Shown: positions 2,695 through 13,335, numbered from the stretch's first letter. The stretch is DNA of 13,335 nucleotides from a virus (UHGV-0874476), one strand, 5' to 3'. Numbers and translations are program-made. The notes: generated by a model not told the origin, from the letters alone.

Positions 2695-4407
2695 CTAATA
2701 AGGGCTTCTTACAATTCGAGATTCTTTTCGTCCAAGTGTATCTTGTACACATTCAGCTAACATACTAAGCGAATCTATTCCGTCATCATGTAGCACTTTT
2801 GCCTTTGTTGTATAAGTACAAACATTCCCCATGAATAATCCGTAATCAGATTTTGGTGTATAAAGACTCGGATCTAAAAACAGACAATGTTTCTTAATCC
2901 AGTCTGCATTAACCAATATTTTTGTTTCCTTATTTGCCGTTGTATATTTCGTTTCAATGCTTGTCCGGCACTTTCCTTTAACCATCTTTTCAATGTTATC
3001 TGCGATTCGTCCTCCGGCTTGGTTCGACTCAAATCTTACTTTATGCGGATTATGCTCAATGATTATGTCTGCTGTTTTCCTGTCCAAAGTGTCGTAATCC
3101 GTGTTATCGTCAAATACTACTGCTGGAATATAGAAATCTTCGCCAAACTGATAAGCAATGGGTAATGACTCAAAGTCTGTTCCCTTATCTTTGGTATCAC
3201 ACACGCCCCATATAGCATCTGGTTCTCTATCCGGAAAAATAGTAAATTGCATTTGTTTCTCTGGTACTTGATCTTTTGAAAAGAAAAATCTTCTCAGCTC
3301 AGATGCAGGGAGAAGCAATCCTTCTCTTTCGATCGGTTGCTGCTGATATAAACAGTTGAAAGAAATATCATCCATGGACTCTTTAGCATCCATAAAATAT
3401 TTCTTAGAAAACCCATTTACAGTAAACATGAAGTTACTTTCTCCGTTTTCATCTAAAGCCGGAATTGCTATGAATTTAGCTTTTGGATTCCCTTCGTAAA
3501 GTTGTTGTAGCTTACCTATTGGATCATGTACCGACCACCTAGTCGCTATATAAATTTCTTTACACCCCTCTAATCGTCTGGAACGTAAATCATTGACAAC
3601 CTTTGTCCAAAGGGTTTCTAATCGGTTTTTGTTCAATGCCTCTTCGATACCAGATACAAGGTCATCGGCTGTAAGAAATCTATTACATCGGGTAGCACCT
3701 GTAAGGGAACCGTCTATAGAGCGGAATGTCCATGTCTTAAATCGTCCATTTCTTTCAAGATTTACAGTTGTTTCTTTCGCATTGGTATTGGTAAGCTGTA
3801 CTGTCGGGAAAATCTCATGCCATGTATATTCCACCGGATCGTTAATGATTTCAAGCACACCATCATAAAGGGAACGTGTCAAAATGCTACTATGTGCTGA
3901 TGAAAGGTTGAAATCGTTCGGAAACCATCCGCCCACAAGCGAAAGAAAGAAATCTTCAAGTGTGGATTTTCCACATCCGGGCGGAACGCTCAGCCCAAAT
4001 ATATCCAATTCATCATCCATTAAATCTTGCAGGCTCTGTATAATTTGATGTTTTACGAACACTTCCCGTCTTGGTTCATAAAATCTTTCTTTTGGAAGTC
4101 GATTCTTCTCTAAATAAAGTAGCCCGCTGTCTACCTGATAGTTTTGGGCTTCCAATAGTAAATACTTCCAGTACAAATCATCAAATTCTCCGCTGCCGGT
4201 CTGAGCCGCCATATAAGCAGCCATCTCATGTGCATACTTGCTGATTTTCATGGCGTAGTCCCGGACTTCCTTATTTTCAGAGAAGTCAAAATCTTCTCTC
4301 ATATTCAGAAGCAAATCCAGGCAATCCCTCTGGTTAACTTTGTTCTTCAATCCGTCATTTATAATTTGTTGGAATAGTCCTTTGTACCATTCCATAGTTC
4401 CTTCCAT
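2695..4407 (-). CDS. terL: phage terminase large subunit
   Basis: 570-aa ORF; Walker A-like PPGCGKST; C-terminal nuclease-like segment ending LHDDGIDSLSMLAE typical of terminase RNase H-like domains; AGGAGG SD upstream of ATG 4407. Confidence 0.88.
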   Translation of the reverse strand: MEGTMEWYKGLFQQIINDGLKNKVNQRDCLDLLLNMREDFDFSENKEVRDYAMKISKYAHEMAAYMAAQTGSGEFDDLYWKYLLLEAQNYQVDSGLLYLEKNRLPKERFYEPRREVFVKHQIIQSLQDLMDDELDIFGLSVPPGCGKSTLEDFFLSLVGGWFPNDFNLSSAHSSILTRSLYDGVLEIINDPVEYTWHEIFPTVQLTNTNAKETTVNLERNGRFKTWTFRSIDGSLTGATRCNRFLTADDLVSGIEEALNKNRLETLWTKVVNDLRSRRLEGCKEIYIATRWSVHDPIGKLQQLYEGNPKAKFIAIPALDENGESNFMFTVNGFSKKYFMDAKESMDDISFNCLYQQQPIEREGLLLPASELRRFFFSKDQVPEKQMQFTIFPDREPDAIWGVCDTKDKGTDFESLPIAYQFGEDFYIPAVVFDDNTDYDTLDRKTADIIIEHNPHKVRFESNQAGGRIADNIEKMVKGKCRTSIETKYTTANKETKILVNADWIKKHCLFLDPSLYTPKSDYGLFMGNVCTYTTKAKVLHDDGIDSLSMLAECVQDTLGRKESRIVRSPY

Positions 4408-7079: not shown

Positions 7080-7372
7080 TACTGTCCCACCCCAAAATGT
7101 TTCCGCAGCATTGCCAATTCATCGACTGCTTTCAGAAATGCTGTCCGCATATCGGTATACCGAATACAATCCTGCTGGTGCTGGTCTTGAAGGTCTTTGC
7201 AAATTCTTTCCAACTCTGCAATTCTGTACTTTTCTTCTTTTTCCACTTTCTTAATTTCAACAGATTCATAAACATCTTCTAGTTTTGATCTAAGAACTGC
7301 GTTTTCGTCAATAAGGTTTCTGATTTGTTCAATCATTTCCTGCTTTGTCATTTCTCTTACACAATCGCACAT
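7079..7372 (-). CDS. hypothetical coiled-coil protein (97 aa)
   Basis: ATG 7372 preceded by GAGG at 9 nt; heptad-like charged/hydrophobic pattern; first gene after the tRNA island. Confidence 0.6.
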   Translation of the reverse strand: MCDCVREMTKQEMIEQIRNLIDENAVLRSKLEDVYESVEIKKVEKEEKYRIAELERICKDLQDQHQQDCIRYTDMRTAFLKAVDELAMLRKHFGVGQ

Positions 7373-7400
7373 ATTTTTTACCTCACAAAATTATTTGAAA

Positions 7401-7426
7401 TGCGCGGGTGTGGATTTGCACCACAC
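7401..7426 (-). other. tRNA 3'-half-like remnant (T-arm-like hairpin GUGUGG-UGCAAAU-CCACAC plus CCCGCGCA tail); no matching 5' acceptor strand found
   Basis: plus-strand gtgtggatttgcaccacac; no complementary acceptor within 100 nt upstream on minus strand. Confidence 0.3.
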
Positions 7427-7557
7427 ATGATTTTCATTCCTACAAGTGTCCTCCGAATTATACATTCCCGACCACTATAAAATCTTATGTTTAAGCGTTT
7501 ACCTGTTCCGCCACCGCACATCACGCATTGATTACCGGCTCAATACGCAAAGCCTAA

Positions 7558-7671
7558 TTGCGACAGGTGGATTTGAACCACCGCTTATACCAACGCCAGA
7601 CCTTCCCAGATTTCAATGGTAGCTAGTCATATACTTTCTGTTGGGTGTGAGGATTTGAACCTCTGTCGCAA
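7558..7671 (-). other. composite tRNA-like structured element: 9-bp terminal inverted repeat enclosing two T-arm-like hairpins with identical UUCAAAU loops
   Basis: minus strand UUGCGACAG...CUGUCGCAA (perfect 9-bp complement); hairpins GAGG-UUCAAAU-CCUC and GGUGG-UUCAAAU-CCACC; neither hairpin has a canonical tRNA body around it. Confidence 0.35.
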
Positions 7672-7722
7672 ACCACGAAAGCTTTCTTCACAACAACAAC
7701 CGGATAAAATCATTGCTGTGCA

Positions 7723-7799
7723 TTGCCCTGAGTGGATTCGAACCACCGACAGCACGCCAGTTCATGTGTACGCTGCTCTACCAACTGAGCTACAGGGCA
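7723..7799 (-). tRNA. tRNA-like gene with canonical acceptor, D-arm and T-arm but non-canonical anticodon arm; identity undetermined, possibly pseudo-tRNA
   Basis: minus strand UGCCCUG-UA-GCUC-AGUUGGUA-GAGC ... GGUGG-UUCGAAU-CCACU-CAGGGCA-A; the 26 nt between D-arm and T-arm cannot form a 5-bp stem with 7-nt loop. Confidence 0.45.
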
Positions 7800-7912
7800 A
7801 ACCTTTTGATTTCGTAAACCGCCTATAATCCTCGGAAATCGTCAGAACTCCATGACGTTCCTTACCTCCAAACTAGGTTTTTAAAGCGCTTTATGGCTTT
7901 TACTTCCGCTTT

Positions 7913-7970
7913 GACATATGGATTGCTCGTCAGCAAATTACGCTCCGGATACCAGAGATCACCATATGTC
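7913..7970 (-). other. 58-nt three-way-junction structured element immediately 3' of tRNA-Thr
   Basis: minus strand GACAUAUGG...CCAUAUGUC (9-bp closing stem) enclosing hairpins CUCUGG-UAU-CCGGAG (one G-U) and UUGCU-GACG-AGCAA. Confidence 0.35.
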
Positions 7971-7972
7971 AG

Positions 7973-8044
7973 AGCCAGAAACCGGACTCGAACCGACAAT
8001 ATCAGCATTACAAGTACTGCGTTCTACCATTGAACTATTCTGGC
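7973..8044 (-). tRNA. tRNA-Thr (anticodon UGU)
   Basis: hand-folded cloverleaf: acceptor GCCAGAA/UUCUGGC, U8 A9, D-stem GUUC/GAAC, anticodon stem CAGUA/UGCUG, loop CUUGUAA, T-arm GUCGG-UUCGAGU-CCGGU, 72 nt. Confidence 0.88.
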
Positions 8045-8296
8045 TACTTAATAAACACCAGTAAACGCTATGCGAAAACCGGATTCCTTTTCTGAACCTG
8101 TCAGATAGGTAAAATATTCCCTTATAAAACCACTTGTCCAACTTATTTACCATACAGGTGTGGCACTAATAATTTACTTCCAGGAATCTTCCAGAATTAC
8201 CGACTACTGCTAATCACGGTCTATGGTCTTATCTCTCTGGAGAAGTTTTTTGCAAGGTTCTTCAGCAGGTATAAGTTGCCTTGCTATATGGAAAAG

Positions 8297-8369
8297 TACA
8301 GGGAGTAGGAGTCGAACCCACAATCGCTGGATATAAGCCAGGTGCAACGTACCGCATCACCTTCCCTGC
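8297..8369 (-). tRNA. probable tRNA, anticodon tentatively UAU (Ile, decoding AUA); atypical A8, weak D-stem, G1-U72
   Basis: acceptor GCAGGGA/UCCCUGU, anticodon stem CUGG/CCAG with loop CUUAUAU, T-arm GUGGG-UUCGACU-CCUAC, 73 nt. Confidence 0.5.
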
Positions 8370-8533
8370 AAAACGGCATTTCTGCCGTTAGCAACATGTT
8401 TTTCGTGCTATGCCTAAGCGCTAGGAAATATTTTCTATTTCCAAAACCTCCCGGCACTTGTGACGCACCTTTAATCAGCTCTCCGCTAGGAGGTTCTAGT
8501 ATAAAGGAGGTCTATCAAAAAAATGATAACAAA

Positions 8534-8605
8534 CGGGGATTGTAGGATTCGAACCTACGTATGCAAGAGTCAAAATCTTGTGTGTTTCCTCTTCACCAAA
8601 TCCCT
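8534..8605 (-). tRNA. tRNA-Gln (anticodon UUG)
   Basis: hand-folded cloverleaf: acceptor AGGGAUU/AAUCCCC (A1-C72 mismatch), 3-bp D-stem, anticodon stem CAAGA/UCUUG, loop UUUUGAC, T-arm GUAGG-UUCGAAU-CCUAC, discriminator G, 72 nt. Confidence 0.88.
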
Positions 8606-9098
8606 ATACTACGTTGCGATAAAAAGTACGATTCATAATATTTATAATTGTTGTTTTTGAAACCCCATAAACTTCCGCGATTCTCCTAGTTGATGTTTTC
8701 CCTTTTTGTTCTCTTATAAAACGAACATCTTTTTCCGTAAGTTTTCTGTTATTATATAATTCATTTTTTTTGCTTTCTTCAATCAAATGATATTTTGTAT
8801 TTTCCTTTGGTGTTACCCACTCTAAATTATCAACATAAGGATTTTTCTTATTTTCGTCTTTATGATGCACTATTTTCTTATTGTCATGATTCGGAATAAA
8901 CGTTTCAGCAACCGCCTTGTGAACTCTAATTCCTTTCACTGCTCCTCTTTTTCCAAGCGGTATATACACCATTAAGTAACCAGCCTTATTAACATTAAAT
9001 TTGTATATACGATTTGTCTTTAAATTTTTAATATTTCCATTTGTATCAATAACAAAATCCGCATATTCAATTCCCCCATATACCATAGTTTTAAACAT
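8604..9098 (-). CDS. HNH homing endonuclease-like protein (N-terminal NUMOD4-like segment, HNH_3-like core, C-terminal helix-turn-helix)
   Basis: motifs GIEYADFVIDTNGNIKNL and HHKDENKKNPYVDNLEWVTPKENTKYH; ATG 9098 preceded by AAAGGAG; stop codon overlaps first nucleotides of tRNA-Gln; ORF-track start 9173 is TTG without RBS. Confidence 0.75.
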   Translation of the reverse strand: MFKTMVYGGIEYADFVIDTNGNIKNLKTNRIYKFNVNKAGYLMVYIPLGKRGAVKGIRVHKAVAETFIPNHDNKKIVHHKDENKKNPYVDNLEWVTPKENTKYHLIEESKKNELYNNRKLTEKDVRFIREQKGKTSTRRIAEVYGVSKTTIINIMNRTFYRNVV

Positions 9099-9213
9099 AA
9101 TGCCACATTCTCCTTTACTGCGGATATTCCCAGTTTTATTCTCCGAATACCCCATTGTGCTTTTTCTTTGCAACCATTCTCTTCTGAACTCATAGCCTGA
9201 CAGGGCAAAATTT

Positions 9214-9520: not shown

Positions 9521-9706
9521 TTACTTCTCTTCTCCAATCAAATAGTCCAGAATCTTTCTAGCGACCTCTTCCTCTGGCTCAAACGGCAATCCGCAGCACC
9601 AATGTTCCTTCAATGCGCTGGCAATGCTGGCAGAAAATCCGTTATACAGGAAATCGTGCTTCAGAAGTTCATTCCTCAAAATGGTTATTGCCTTCTTAGT
9701 CTGCAT
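9521..9706 (-). CDS. hypothetical small protein (61 aa)
   Basis: ATG 9706; 11-nt overlap with upstream gene; weak SD. Confidence 0.45.
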   Translation of the reverse strand: MQTKKAITILRNELLKHDFLYNGFSASIASALKEHWCCGLPFEPEEEVARKILDYLIGEEK

Positions 9707-10274
9707 TTTCGTGTTCGCCTGTAATCAGTTCATGATATGGCAATGTTTCAATCCATTTACAGAAATCACGCCATTCTGGAAGGCGATGATTCTTTCTCTG
9801 TGCGTATATGGTTTTTAACTGCTGATAGTTTGTTGTAATTCCGGCAGTAAGAATTGTTCCTGTCGGGCAATTATAAAGTAGAGCCAGGTAATCTTCCGGT
9901 TCTTTGGTCGCATTGTAAACTGCTTTAAGCCGGTTCATTTCATTTTTAGTGTTATCTGTAACATACCTGCAGAAGCATTCATCATAATTCATTGAACTAA
10001 GTCTGTGCATTGTAGACTGGGAAGACACGATGTCGAACCAATGATATCGCTCAGCTTCTGTCCAGGCTTTAACTGTAAACGATAAATCAAACTGAACTAC
10101 TATCCCCTTTAAGAAATTATCATGCCCACTGCCTTTTTCAGCAGTTCCAAGCTTCTTTACTGTTTTAGTATAGTCTGCACTGCACTTATCAGAATCTACC
10201 GACATCGGGAATTTTGAAACCCTGAAGCTATTTTCTAAGCCGTAAACGCTGACATTGCTAACAATATTCTTCAT
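9696..10274 (-). CDS. hypothetical protein (192 aa); weak, unverified resemblance to ThyX-type flavin-dependent thymidylate synthase fold without the RHR motif
   Basis: ATG 10274 preceded by GGAGAGG SD; segment GSGHDNFLKGIVVQFDLSFTVKAWTEAERYH recalls the ThyX HGHxxxFEHxxxTF...W..RHR region, but the RHR signature is replaced. Confidence 0.6.
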   Translation of the reverse strand: MKNIVSNVSVYGLENSFRVSKFPMSVDSDKCSADYTKTVKKLGTAEKGSGHDNFLKGIVVQFDLSFTVKAWTEAERYHWFDIVSSQSTMHRLSSMNYDECFCRYVTDNTKNEMNRLKAVYNATKEPEDYLALLYNCPTGTILTAGITTNYQQLKTIYAQRKNHRLPEWRDFCKWIETLPYHELITGEHENAD

Positions 10275-12185: not shown

Positions 12186-12539
12186 TCACTTCTTTTCAAA
12201 ATAAAATTTTACCGGAGCATCATTTTCTTTTACAATTCCGAAGTTCTTCGCAAGACGATAAATGAAATTCTTTTCTAATCTTTCATGCAAAGTCTGTAAT
12301 CTTTCCCGAAATTTTTCAATCGTATAAGTCGATTTGTAAAAATTACACATTCTACAAGCCGGATTGTAGTTTTCAATATCATTCGCTCCATTATGCCAGT
12401 AAAGAGGATTGATGTGATCTACCTGCATGTCCTTGTATTCCAGTTCACAACCGCAATAGGCACAATGTCCAGAATATTTGTTATATACCTGAATCCGTAT
12501 TGGTTTTGGAATTGGTTTTCGTTTTTTCTGTTCTTGCAT
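12186..12539 (-). CDS. HNH endonuclease (117 aa)
   Basis: classic HNH motif CAYCG...DHINP...N...CRMCN; ATG 12539 preceded by GGAG at 6 nt, 1 nt after upstream stop. Confidence 0.8.
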   Translation of the reverse strand: MQEQKKRKPIPKPIRIQVYNKYSGHCAYCGCELEYKDMQVDHINPLYWHNGANDIENYNPACRMCNFYKSTYTIEKFRERLQTLHERLEKNFIYRLAKNFGIVKENDAPVKFYFEKK

Positions 12540-12540
12540 A

Positions 12541-12834
12541 TTAATCTCCACTGATGTAAATGAAATCCGCATTTCTAAAACTCACATTCGGAAACATGTT
12601 TACAGCCACATTACACAAGGCAATAAACAAATCGCCTCTGTCATCTACAGTCTTAACTTTTCCATTTGTACCCTTGCAAACTATATTCTGCCCAGAAGCG
12701 TCTTTGGTTATAAAATAATCTGATTCATCGTTTAAGATAAAATCCATCGAAAGTGTTTTGCAAAGAATCCGAAATGCTTCTTCTGGTTCTATGTCAATAT
12801 TAAATGTTTGTTTTGATGTAACGTCAACTAACAT
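12541..12834 (-). CDS. hypothetical protein (97 aa); shares an identical 18-aa / 55-nt segment with the upstream gene
   Basis: ATG 12834 preceded by GAGGAA at 5 nt; C-terminal RGDLFIALCNVAVNMFPN encoded by repeat copy 12585-12639. Confidence 0.55.
   Translation of the reverse strand: MLVDVTSKQTFNIDIEPEEAFRILCKTLSMDFILNDESDYFITKDASGQNIVCKGTNGKVKTVDDRGDLFIALCNVAVNMFPNVSFRNADFIYISGD
12585..12639. repeat. direct repeat copy 1 (55 bp, identical to 13281-13335)
   Basis: cattcggaaacatgtttacagccacattacacaaggcaataaacaaatcgcctct; flanks diverge on the left. Confidence 0.9.
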
Positions 12835-12843
12835 GTTGGTTCC

Positions 12844-13335
12844 TCATTTCGCTTCTGTCATATCATCTACCAGTTTGACCGTATTCTTCATGGCTGTTTC
12901 CAGAATCTCTGGCGTAATTTCTAGTCCTCTGATTTCTCCGCTTCTGGTTTTCCCAGCGCATACACAATCCACAATCATTTCAATCACATCCAACAGGTTT
13001 ACATCTTCCGGACATCTGGAAAGCAAGTGATGCCTTTCGGTATTAGCATGATACTGATACCATTTCCCAGATACAAAATCTATTCCGCCAGCCATAGTTT
13101 CAAGAAAGTCATCGTAGAGCATCTTTTCTTCTGTTTTCTTCGTCCAATCATGTTTCTCTCCGTTTTCACAGAACATAGTTCCAATCTCATCCATTACTGC
13201 CCTTACATCTGCAATATGGCTGTCGTTTGCTTCCTGAAATTGCTTAAAGTTAATTCCTTTCGGAGCTGTTCTTGTGTCTCCATTCGGAAACATGTTTACA
13301 GCCACATTACACAAGGCAATAAACAAATCGCCTCT
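12844..13335 (-). CDS. hypothetical protein, 5'-truncated by window edge (at least 160 aa)
   Basis: frame is open to window end; ORF-track M at 13326 is a TTG inside the repeat; stop TGA at 12844-12846 sits in the SD of the next gene. Confidence 0.6.
   Translation of the reverse strand, partial: RGDLFIALCNVAVNMFPNGDTRTAPKGINFKQFQEANDSHIADVRAVMDEIGTMFCENGEKHDWTKKTEEKMLYDDFLETMAGGIDFVSGKWYQYHANTERHHLLSRCPEDVNLLDVIEMIVDCVCAGKTRSGEIRGLEITPEILETAMKNTVKLVDDMTEAK
13281..13335. repeat. direct repeat copy 2 (at least 55 bp, truncated by window end)
   Basis: exact match to 12585-12639 at offset 696 bp. Confidence 0.9.

Follow-up and report, generated by a model that had tools for sequence, protein, structure and literature searches.

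The 13,335-nucleotide (nt) stretch of viral DNA UHGV-0874476, called the window here at its full length, contains transfer RNA (tRNA) genes, tRNA-shaped RNAs and conserved spacers next to a gene for an HNH endonuclease. Our analysis suggests that this region is a single co-oriented array of tRNAs and non-coding RNAs of an uncultured gut phage, with a mobile HNH gene inserted at its head. We put the probability of this reading at roughly 0.6. Two of the RNAs, a 120-nt RNA on a tRNA-Leu frame (Y) and a 53-nt three-way-junction RNA (motif 1), belong to large families that show covariation and are found together in phage tRNA arrays. In addition, the spacers are conserved while the intervening tRNA cassettes are exchanged. 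The host of the phage probably belongs to the Clostridia.

The array forms an island just upstream of the packaging genes. Positions 7380-8606 are a 1.2-kb region free of open reading frames (ORFs), with a G+C content of 0.44-0.47 compared to 0.31-0.40 in the flanks. A first-pass annotation had described such an island with seven T-arm-like hairpins. All seven were located, on the minus strand, at 8558-8542, 8321-8305, 7997-7982, 7747-7731, 7663-7649, 7582-7566 and 7426-7408. Every credible gene of the window, including many small phage ORFs, is also on the minus strand, and so are all window features described below unless the opposite strand is named. The annotation had also recognized a phage, which agrees with the presence of an SPP1-type portal at 540-2033 (2.6e-25) and a terminase large subunit at 2695-4407. 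The 51.7-kb Logan contig L205 (run ERR11560439) matches the island at 100% identity. The nearest IMG/VR relatives of the window are L002-L004. Dulem virus 39 (L001, PP511791), from lemur faeces, is the sole noteworthy GenBank match, and no close cultured or GenBank phage was found. Contigs L206 and L207 carry a 97-amino-acid neighbor gene identical to that of the window. Identities given below were determined segment by segment between the window and L002-L004 and L206. Rfam 15 was scanned with the whole window at E<=1 and with the island at E<=10.

The Y family and motif 1

Y is located at 7401-7520. It consists of an acceptor stem UGUGCGG/CCGCGCA with one U:G pair, the D arm UG-GCGG-AACAGGUAAA-CGC, a structured insert of 66 nt and the T arm GUGUGG-UGCAAAU-CCACAC. 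Its T loop departs from the UUCGAAU/UUCAAAU loops that had been ascribed to such hairpins. The window copy fits the family consensus, in which the D arm is UG-GCGR-AAURGGUARA-CGC, similar to tRNA-Leu, and the T arm is GUGUGG-UKCAAAU-CCACAC. Full-length relatives were found by BLAST against the collected loci, which contain 69 distinct copies of 100-251 nt. The 3' signature CATGTGTGGTKCAAATCCACACC was found in at least 120 viral contigs in an IMG/VR scan. At the Y loci, 293 tRNAs are on the same strand as Y and 4 are on the opposite strand.

The acceptor stem was tested without being presupposed, with the D-arm motif and the T arm located independently. In 70 of 73 distinct copies, the heptamer preceding the D arm pairs at all seven positions with the heptamer following the T arm. 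When the register is shifted by 1-3 nt, none of the 73 is fully paired. About 20 different covarying acceptor sequences are found in the family. The D stem covaries as well and occurs in seven types (GCG/CGC, ACG/CGU, GAG/CUC, AUG/CAU, CUG/CAG, UGC/GCA and UAC/GUA). The D arm (UGGCGGAAUAGGUAGACGC) is identical to that of the E. coli tRNA-Leu leuW at 18 of 20 positions in an alignment, which was used in place of an uninformative fixed-offset comparison with phage tRNA-Leu genes. The T stem has 6 base pairs (bp), creating an unusual 7/6 acceptor/T branch. CCA is not encoded, and the discriminator is mostly A.

The anticodon arm is replaced by a hypervariable structured domain of 50-190 nt between the D and T arms, which usually opens with a covarying stem. 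In the subfamily of the window copy (L232, L248 and L285), this stem shows compensatory changes, GAUUUU/AAAAUC versus GAACUG/CGGUUC, and surrounds the conserved strings AUAGUGGUCGGG...CGGAGGAC...AGGAAUG. In short members the arm ends in a GAAA tetraloop, indicating that there is no anticodon loop. Y has no match in Rfam 15, including the tRNA family RF00005, in the island scan at E<=10, and no BLAST match in 50,697 GenBank phage records. The first-pass annotation had suggested that intact tRNAs in the island are outnumbered by tRNA-like remnants or novel structured RNAs. An excess of remnants is not supported: the island has three ordinary tRNAs beside the aberrant one, and of the two long RNAs, Y is identified by the sequence comparisons as a member of a conserved, covarying family.

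Motif 1 is located at 8443-8495. Covariance model R1 detects one full-length copy in the window (72.5 bits, E 3.5e-20). Its three helices are P1 (CCUCC/GGAGG), P1a (AGC-GGAGA-GCU) and P2 (GGUGC-GUCACAA-GUGCC), with the linker GAUUAAA between the latter two. The family is defined by the P1/P1a/P2 junction with UAG..GGAA..CUG, UNAAG and a 7-nt P2 loop, all of which are found in the window copy. The consensus reads P1, U, AGN-GGAAW-NCU, G(AU)UNAAG, a 5-bp P2 with the loop NYCRSAM, G, P1' and UUU. With a search pattern built from the sequences of the window and Dulem virus 39, motif 1 was identified in at least 120 IMG/VR viral contigs.

In 42 distinct sequences of motif 1, 99.5% of the cells are paired and 8 pairs are changed on both sides (103 cells), with at most 43% pairing in slid controls. 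G:U combinations outnumber A.C combinations 28 to 2, which indicates pairing in an RNA of the same strand as the tRNAs. The covariance model found motif 1 in 55 of 100 loci that had been collected through Y alone. In most loci motif 1 is located 43-55 nt past a tRNA, most often tRNA-Gln(UUG). Elsewhere it is found about 40 nt after some Y-type RNAs, and in some loci after a protein gene. The window copy starts 38 nt past tRNA-Gln. Genome matches to motif 1 are to metagenome-assembled genomes of Clostridia and to Lachnospira intestinalis. No Rfam 15 family matches motif 1 (window E<=1, island E<=10), and BLAST against the 50,697 GenBank phage records gave no match.

The trailer between tRNA-Gln and motif 1 (8496-8532) is composed of the hairpin UUAUCA-U7-GAUAG followed by the pyrimidine tract ACCUCCUUUAUAC. 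Trailer and motif 1 together are 81-98% identical to their counterparts in L002-L004 and L206. The arrangement CAU-(4-12 nt)-CCUCC(UUUC) is found in the RNA upstream of motif 1 in 28 of 52 non-redundant loci, compared to a mean of 2.5 in shuffles. The opposite strand of the trailer (8499-8529) reads as a Shine-Dalgarno sequence and an ATG. The opposite-strand ORFs behind them are not conserved, being antisense to tRNA-Gln or 5-9 codons long. Duplex energies between the trailer and the start regions of the window are non-specific. A resemblance of the motif 1 unit to the 3' end of 16S rRNA (the GGAA loop, GUNACAAGG and CCUCCUUUC) was considered and rejected, as the elements are in the wrong order.

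Several features were observed next to motif 1 in related contigs. In L022, a ROOL RNA (2296-2869, 356.9 bits) is followed directly by tRNA-Met (2866-2937) and by motif 1 with the loop GUCGCAA (2985-3035). An insertion of about 145 nt is found right after motif 1, at the equivalent of window position ~8442, in L003 (7333-7480), L206 and L207. Downstream of motif 1 in L090, L149, L163, L129, L105 and L100, and not in the window, the element GUGRAAAUCAACC-[hairpin]-NNGUUAUAGGCNN recurs. Its short stem covaries (CAG/CUG, CUG/CAG, CCG/CGG), and it has no Rfam match in the loci scanned.

tRNA cassettes, conserved spacers and the HNH gene

The spacers are better conserved than the tRNAs located between them, a feature that the first-pass annotation had not noticed. 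tRNA-Gln is 64-69% identical to its counterparts in L002-L004 and L206, and identity in the tRNA-Ile segment is 38-55%. L002-L004 have another tRNA-Ile in place of the one in the window, and L206 and L207 have tRNA-Pro(UGG) and tRNA-Met(CAU) at the same place. tRNA-Thr is missing from L003 and L004. The cassettes vary even among contigs with the identical 97-amino-acid neighbor gene.

Both ARAGORN and RF00005 (gathering threshold 29 bits) identify four tRNA-model matches in the window: tRNA-Gln(UUG) at 8533-8606 (59.6 bits, with a mismatched 1:72 pair), tRNA-Ile(UAU) at 8296-8369 (33.3 bits, with a weak D stem), tRNA-Thr(UGU) at 7972-8044 (65.6 bits) and an aberrant, ‘Phe-like’ tRNA with a defective anticodon arm at 7722-7800 (48.5 bits). 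The Thr-UGU and Gln-UUG genes had been regarded as clean tRNAs in the first-pass annotation, which is borne out. Its total of two clean tRNAs and one probable tRNA was too low, with tRNA-Ile(UAU) and the aberrant gene to be added. It had counted four further separate elements, but the hairpins at 7663-7649 and 7582-7566 are both within one 113-nt RNA (X). The island therefore contains six tRNA-shaped genes rather than seven: three ordinary tRNAs, the aberrant tRNA and the two long RNAs X and Y. Under ARAGORN and Rfam the seven hairpins do not all become ordinary tRNAs, as X and Y have no RF00005 match at E<=10. That the island holds structured RNAs other than ordinary tRNAs, as had been proposed, is thus confirmed.

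A 5-bp anticodon stem, a 7-nt loop, U33 and a purine at position 37 are found in tRNA-Gln, tRNA-Ile and tRNA-Thr, and not in the aberrant tRNA, X or Y. The three ordinary tRNAs read A-ending codons. ACA accounts for 51% of Thr codons, ATA for 26% of Ile codons and CAA for 44% of Gln codons. The aberrant tRNA has canonical acceptor, D and T arms. Its middle is 5 nt over length and lacks a 7-nt anticodon loop; the covariance model leaves the anticodon arm unaligned, and the minimum free energy (MFE) fold has a 6-nt loop. ARAGORN assigns it a 4-base anticodon ‘gaac’, or Phe-GAA with a 3-nt intron if introns are allowed. In relatives the body is kept with three different, unrelated middle arms. 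This pattern would suit a non-decoding tRNA-like RNA or a pseudogene alike. ARAGORN found no transfer-messenger RNA (tmRNA) in the window at default or relaxed settings.

X (7558-7670) is closed by the perfect 7-bp terminal stem UGCGACA/UGUCGCA. Its T arm is GGUGG-UUCAAAU-CCACC, the D position is taken by a second T-loop hairpin, GAGG-UUCAAAU-CCUC, and the middle has 66 nt. The tRNA-like frame is kept in the MFE fold (z = -1.75). ARAGORN calls X at relaxed settings only. Against RF00005 it has no match at E<=10, and tRNA-Sec is matched at 16 bits only. Nested T-loop hairpins are also present in some Y inserts. X is 100% identical in near-identical contigs. Two strong hairpins flank it, one of 13 bp with G:U pairs at 7689-7720, between the aberrant tRNA and X, and one at 7523-7548, GCGUAUUGA-8 nt-UCAAUGCGU, between X and Y. 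Both are identical in all near-identical contigs.

The HNH gene (8604-9098) encodes a free-standing endonuclease of 164 amino acids, with the ATG at 9098 and its own ribosome-binding site AAAGGAG at ~9113. The gene caller gives the same 164-amino-acid protein, with PF13392, on the identical contig L205. The first-pass annotation had called the gene NUMOD4/HNH_3-like. The HNH_3 part of this assignment holds (1.3e-7, 31.6 bits, cut-off 24.8); no NUMOD4 match was found at E<=0.01. The protein also has a C-terminal helix-turn-helix and matches phrog_59 (3.8e-32). As had been noticed, the gene ends on tRNA-Gln: the TAG stop (8606-8604) and the tRNA share the first nucleotide(s) of the latter. In alignments with L002, L004 and L206, the gene is a clean insertion of about 505 nt between motif L, the leader of the array, and tRNA-Gln. 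It is present in the window, L205 and L210 and cleanly missing at the same site in L002, L004 and L206; L207 lacks it as well. Such presence and absence at one site, together with the own ribosome-binding site, characterizes mobile endonuclease genes of the free-standing type, in agreement with the homing type that had been proposed.

Motif L (9119-9207) is a structured leader ahead of the array, with a long-range stem UGCCC/GGGGUA followed by the hairpin CGGA-GAAUAAAACUGGGAAUA-UCCG. It is 93-97% identical in L002-L004 and L206 despite different upstream genes. Homologues immediately precede tRNA-Gln in other phages and in one Lachnospira intestinalis genome. Its stems are 99% paired, with 6 pairs changed on both sides and at most 54% pairing in slid controls, over about three lineages only. 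Motif L has no match in Rfam 15.

The second small three-way junction, hp60 (7912-7971), starts 1-2 nt past the 3' end of tRNA-Thr. It is formed by an outer stem GACAUAUGG/CCAUAUGUC and the hairpins CUCUGG-UAU-CCGGAG and UUGCU-GACG-AGCAA. None of 200 shuffles is as stable (z = -3.16). hp60 is 85-100% identical in L002-L004 and L206 and 90% identical in Dulem virus 39, where compensatory changes were seen by eye in the outer stem and the first hairpin. It is rare: a degenerate pattern gave 3 matches, one of them by chance in a coding region. Two readings of this part of the array were rejected. A hammerhead reading of CUGACGAG in hp60 has no stem II/GAAA arrangement, judged by hand, and no Rfam support. 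For a topology like that of hepatitis delta virus (HDV) or theta ribozymes, a loose custom descriptor gave 0 candidates in 7340-8640, versus 0-4 in shuffles, and no HDV family of Rfam matched at E<=10.

The remainder of spacer 1 (8370-8442) contains the hairpins GGAAAUA-GAAAA-UAUUUCC (8442-8424) and AACGGCA-GAAA-UGCCGUU (8389-8372), with GNRA-type loops. It is 81-95% identical in relatives, and spacer 1 as a whole folds with z = -3.25. Spacer 2 (8045-8295) is a conserved non-coding segment that is 88-97% identical in L002-L004 and L206 over 8295-8117. It shows a few compatible changes, such as A:U to G:U to G:C in ACCG/CGGU, and has no homologues outside the clade. The spacer motifs contain no conserved ORFs on either strand. 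Among known RNA families in Rfam 15, the island has only tRNA matches and chance matches; no ROOL, GOLLD, int-alpA or RAGATH RNA was matched in the window (E<=1) or in the island (E<=10).

Proposed mechanism and alternative explanations

The whole array is likely to be transcribed as one precursor. Each tRNA-shaped unit would be released from it by host RNase P and 3' processing, and the spacers would thereby be freed as small RNAs. CCA would be added after processing, since none is encoded. The three ordinary tRNAs may supplement the decoding of ACA, AUA and CAA. Y-type RNAs are probably non-decoding. Their tRNA-Leu-like frame would act as a handle for processing, stability and possibly binding of leucyl-tRNA synthetase (LeuRS), and would present the variable structured domain. 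LeuRS does not read the anticodon, which makes charging of Y with leucine conceivable, and we consider it rather doubtful. Motif 1 and the pyrimidine-rich trailer may constitute a trailer-derived regulatory or processing RNA. A role similar to that of a small RNA is suggested tentatively for this pair, and self-cleavage is clearly less likely. Homing of the HNH gene with co-conversion of its flanks may help the tRNA cassettes shuffle between the conserved spacers. This proposal is based on the HNH gene and on the steep drop in identity, which is limited to the cassettes adjoining it. SegB, located within the tRNA cluster of phage T4, is a precedent for a homing endonuclease in such a cluster.

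Parts of this arrangement resemble known systems. tRNA clusters of the T4/T5 type contain homing endonucleases (SegB in T4, of the GIY-YIG type) and stable non-tRNA RNAs (species 1 and 2 of T4). The window is similar in having a mobile endonuclease gene in or beside a tRNA cluster and, as predicted here, stable co-transcribed RNAs of unknown function that are processed like tRNAs. It differs in its HNH_3 enzyme, the lack of sequence relation, another host phylum and the large covarying families to which its RNAs belong. The proposed origin of the trailer and motif 1 by tRNA 3' processing, and the single-stranded, seed-like tract, are reminiscent of 3'ETS-leuZ of E. coli, a small RNA derived from a tRNA precursor. 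The two are not similar in sequence or structure, and our target search found none. In tmRNA, as in Y, the ends form an acceptor stem and T arm, a D-loop region is present and a long helix to an extra domain replaces the anticodon arm. Unlike tmRNA, Y has no G3:U70 alanine identity pair and no recognizable tag reading frame, has a proper D stem and is 100-251 nt long.

Allo-tRNAs with 8/4 or 9/3 acceptor/T branches were found in bacteria and phages by metagenome mining, and some were proposed to be regulatory (Mukai et al., 2017, PMC5389517). Allo-tRNAs keep an anticodon stem-loop and decode, whereas Y has a 7/6 branch (13 bp) and no anticodon stem-loop. ROOL and GOLLD are ornate non-coding RNAs of unknown function located beside phage and prophage tRNA genes (Weinberg et al., 2017, PMC5737381; structures by cryogenic electron microscopy, PMC12286853). 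They share the location next to tRNAs with the RNAs described here, and in L022 tRNA-Met and motif 1 come directly after a ROOL RNA (357 bits). In contrast to motif 1 (53 nt) and Y (100-251 nt), they are 500-800 nt long and have no tRNA frame, and neither is present in the window. Theta ribozymes, which are minimal HDV-like ribozymes, adjoin the 3' ends of gut-phage tRNAs, with about 90% of the hosts in the Bacteroidota (Kienbeck et al., 2024, PMC10879173). They too are small structured RNAs on the tRNA strand among tRNA genes of uncultured gut Caudoviricetes, and hp60 abuts a tRNA 3' end in the same way. The window, however, contains no nested double pseudoknot (P1, P2, P3 and P1.1) with a catalytic C and no Rfam HDV-family match. 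The genome matches here are to Clostridia, and motif 1 is 43-99 nt from the tRNA end, compared to within 5 nt for theta ribozymes.

These likenesses raise the question of whether motif 1, hp60 and motif L are themselves self-cleaving ribozymes that cut the precursor beside tRNAs. In size and style, motif 1 and hp60 resemble small ribozymes, being compact three-way junctions whose junction and loop nucleotides are invariant; hp60 starts 1-2 nt past tRNA-Thr, and RAGATH-27 and a sub-threshold twister are present in related arrays. We nevertheless regard this explanation as improbable. No ribozyme family of Rfam 15 matched at E<=10, the HDV-like descriptor found nothing in the island, motif 1 has a variable distance (43-99 nt) from the tRNA end and an occasional location after a protein gene, and there is no assignable cleavage site. 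That the conserved spacers act as DNA, as endonuclease targets, recombination anchors or promoters, would fit the mosaic of conserved spacers and swapped tRNAs, the adjacent HNH gene and the Shine-Dalgarno sequence and ATG opposite the trailer. The excess of G:U over A.C in motif 1 is, in contrast, that of an RNA helix on the tRNA strand, and its three helices covary. With no promoter-like signal above shuffles and no conservation of the opposite-strand ORFs, a DNA-level role is less probable still for the spacers in general. It is possible for spacer 2, which is less well supported as RNA.

The tRNA-shaped elements could also be the products of decay, that is, functionless tRNA pseudogenes or recombination scars, with repeated T arms recombining into chimeras. 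Contig L210 (Logan ERR14024575) has a 148-nt deletion, equivalent to window 7731-7584, which fuses the T arm of the aberrant tRNA to that of X over a 16-nt direct repeat, GGTGGTTC[G/A]AATCCAC. The deletion may be either a natural recombination between T arms or an assembly collapse. X contains an embedded fragment similar to a T arm plus acceptor (GAGGUUCAAAUCCUC-ACACCCA-A) and has no homologue, and the middle arms of the aberrant tRNA are unrelated among relatives. Decay fits X and the aberrant tRNA far better than Y, in whose family the acceptor stem covaries in about 20 types, the D stem covaries as well and insert motifs are conserved within subfamilies. X and Y are moreover 100% identical across contigs whose neighboring tRNAs differ. 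As an explanation of the non-canonical elements together, decay is unlikely. Intron-containing tRNA genes, in which the inserts of X, Y and the aberrant tRNA are spliced and the halves sealed by a ligase such as RtcB, are the least probable explanation, and we consider them very improbable. Relaxed ARAGORN models include introns of 3, 34 and 50 nt, RtcB is encoded by Dulem virus 39, and some members of the Y family have U-AAG-R or CUUAG strings after the D arm. However, the relaxed calls for homologous Y copies are mutually inconsistent in isotype (Tyr, Asn, Pro, Leu, Ile) and intron length (26-62 nt), which argues against spliced tRNAs. There is no shared anticodon stem around the insert, and the arm of the shortest members is closed by the GAAA tetraloop. 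We found no splice position that consistently restores an anticodon arm across homologues and rejected Y as an intron-containing tRNA. At 50-190 nt, the inserts fall short of the length of group I introns, and they match no Rfam intron family. Bacteria are also not known to have a tRNA splicing endonuclease.

Several points weigh against the reading of the region as a co-oriented array of functional RNAs. Transcription, processing, charging and every function proposed for the new RNAs are predicted from sequence analysis alone. The scan for promoters and terminators gave no signal above shuffles, so the transcription unit is assumed. The IMG/VR matches are dominated by data set 3300045988, and the wide distribution of the families may partly reflect sampling. 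A second, independent sample of motif 1 is 99.7% paired, with P1a covarying as CG/UG/GC/UA, in an alignment (A7) that was fitted to the model structure and is hence biased towards it. For the anti-Shine-Dalgarno-like trailer, a target search gave no second site in the window and no target among 33 loci. The fold of spacer 2 does not exceed that of shuffles in stability (z = 0.29), and the support for motif L and hp60 is limited to 2-3 lineages. The window copy of Y has a discriminator U (7400), not the A expected for leucine identity, and T-loop position 55 is a G in half of the Y family, an unusual feature if the RNA is handled as a tRNA. X has no homologues beyond the near-identical contigs (0 viral matches to the X pattern) and hence no comparative support; the claims for it are limited to the tRNA-like frame and the second T-loop hairpin.

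It is possible, if somewhat less likely than not, that the co-oriented array samples a set of phage non-coding RNAs, not described before, that accompanies tRNA arrays in phages of gut Clostridia and includes the Y class and a regulatory unit. If so, Y would represent a new anticodon-less class on a tRNA-Leu frame, with a 7/6 branch, that is matured, perhaps leucylated, and equipped with a variable effector domain. It may titrate LeuRS, RNase P or tRNA-targeting defence nucleases, or bring an RNA domain to the translation machinery. Motif L would be part of a conserved unit for regulation or processing, together with the tRNA, the anti-Shine-Dalgarno-like trailer and motif 1, and a new class of self-cleaving ribozyme could be represented by one of the small three-way junctions. 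tRNA clusters with mobile endonucleases and companion RNAs are already known; the Y, motif 1, motif L and hp60 families appear to be undescribed. We found no description of Y or motif 1 in the literature searched, whose coverage was incomplete and does not prove absence. The usual view of phage tRNA clusters, as devices for codon usage or against host defence, disregards their spacers. Here the spacers and the tRNA-shaped oddities are conserved and the tRNAs exchangeable. The covariation of Y and motif 1, both missing from Rfam 15, is strong enough to justify experiments. Whether phages exploit tRNA maturation, and perhaps aminoacylation, to produce non-decoding RNAs can be tested concretely on a tRNA-Leu frame that has no anticodon arm. 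The motifs also provide further candidates for the few small RNAs linked to the processing of phage tRNAs, such as theta ribozymes and ROOL/GOLLD.

Related arrays and neighboring genes

Known non-coding RNAs are found in several related arrays. int-alpA RNA (43-53 bits, gathering threshold 35.8) is located in or beside the arrays of L135 (2171-2239), L108 (1127-1194) and L128 (1395-1462), with a sub-threshold match in L002 (2006-2073). L003 has a sub-threshold type-P1 twister at 269-319 on the minus strand (40.3 bits, gathering threshold 67.2, E 1.4e-5). In Dulem virus 39, a RAGATH-27 RNA (3637-3720, 77.2 bits) is located between tRNA-Gln and tRNA-Ser genes, and the same region encodes the RtcB RNA ligase (88-1293). 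This ligase gene is the only feature we found that may bear on the anti-defence reading offered in the first-pass annotation, in which phage tRNAs counter tRNA-targeting host defences. Together with the ROOL RNA in L022, these RNAs suggest that this array lineage is generally rich in non-coding RNAs. In the annotation of Dulem virus 39, several ‘hypothetical proteins’ of 30-50 amino acids coincide in part with tRNAs, motif 1 and hp60; they are unlikely to be genes. ARAGORN also calls many tRNAs with A at position 34 in related arrays (Asn-AUU, Ile-AAU, Ser-AGA and Arg-ACG), several ochre-suppressor-like tRNAs (anticodon UUA) and two SeC-UCA tRNAs.

Additional genes are located upstream of the array in the window. 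Another HNH endonuclease gene, unrelated to the first (PF01844, 3.5e-9), and an adjacent DUF5662 gene are found at 12186-12572 and 12844-13326, about 3 kb upstream of the island. Between them and the island, 9696-10274 encodes a 192-amino-acid protein of unknown function that matches phrog_6721 (7.6e-51). It has 137 confirmed relatives in IMG/VR, and in most of their loci a tRNA array is absent from the vicinity.

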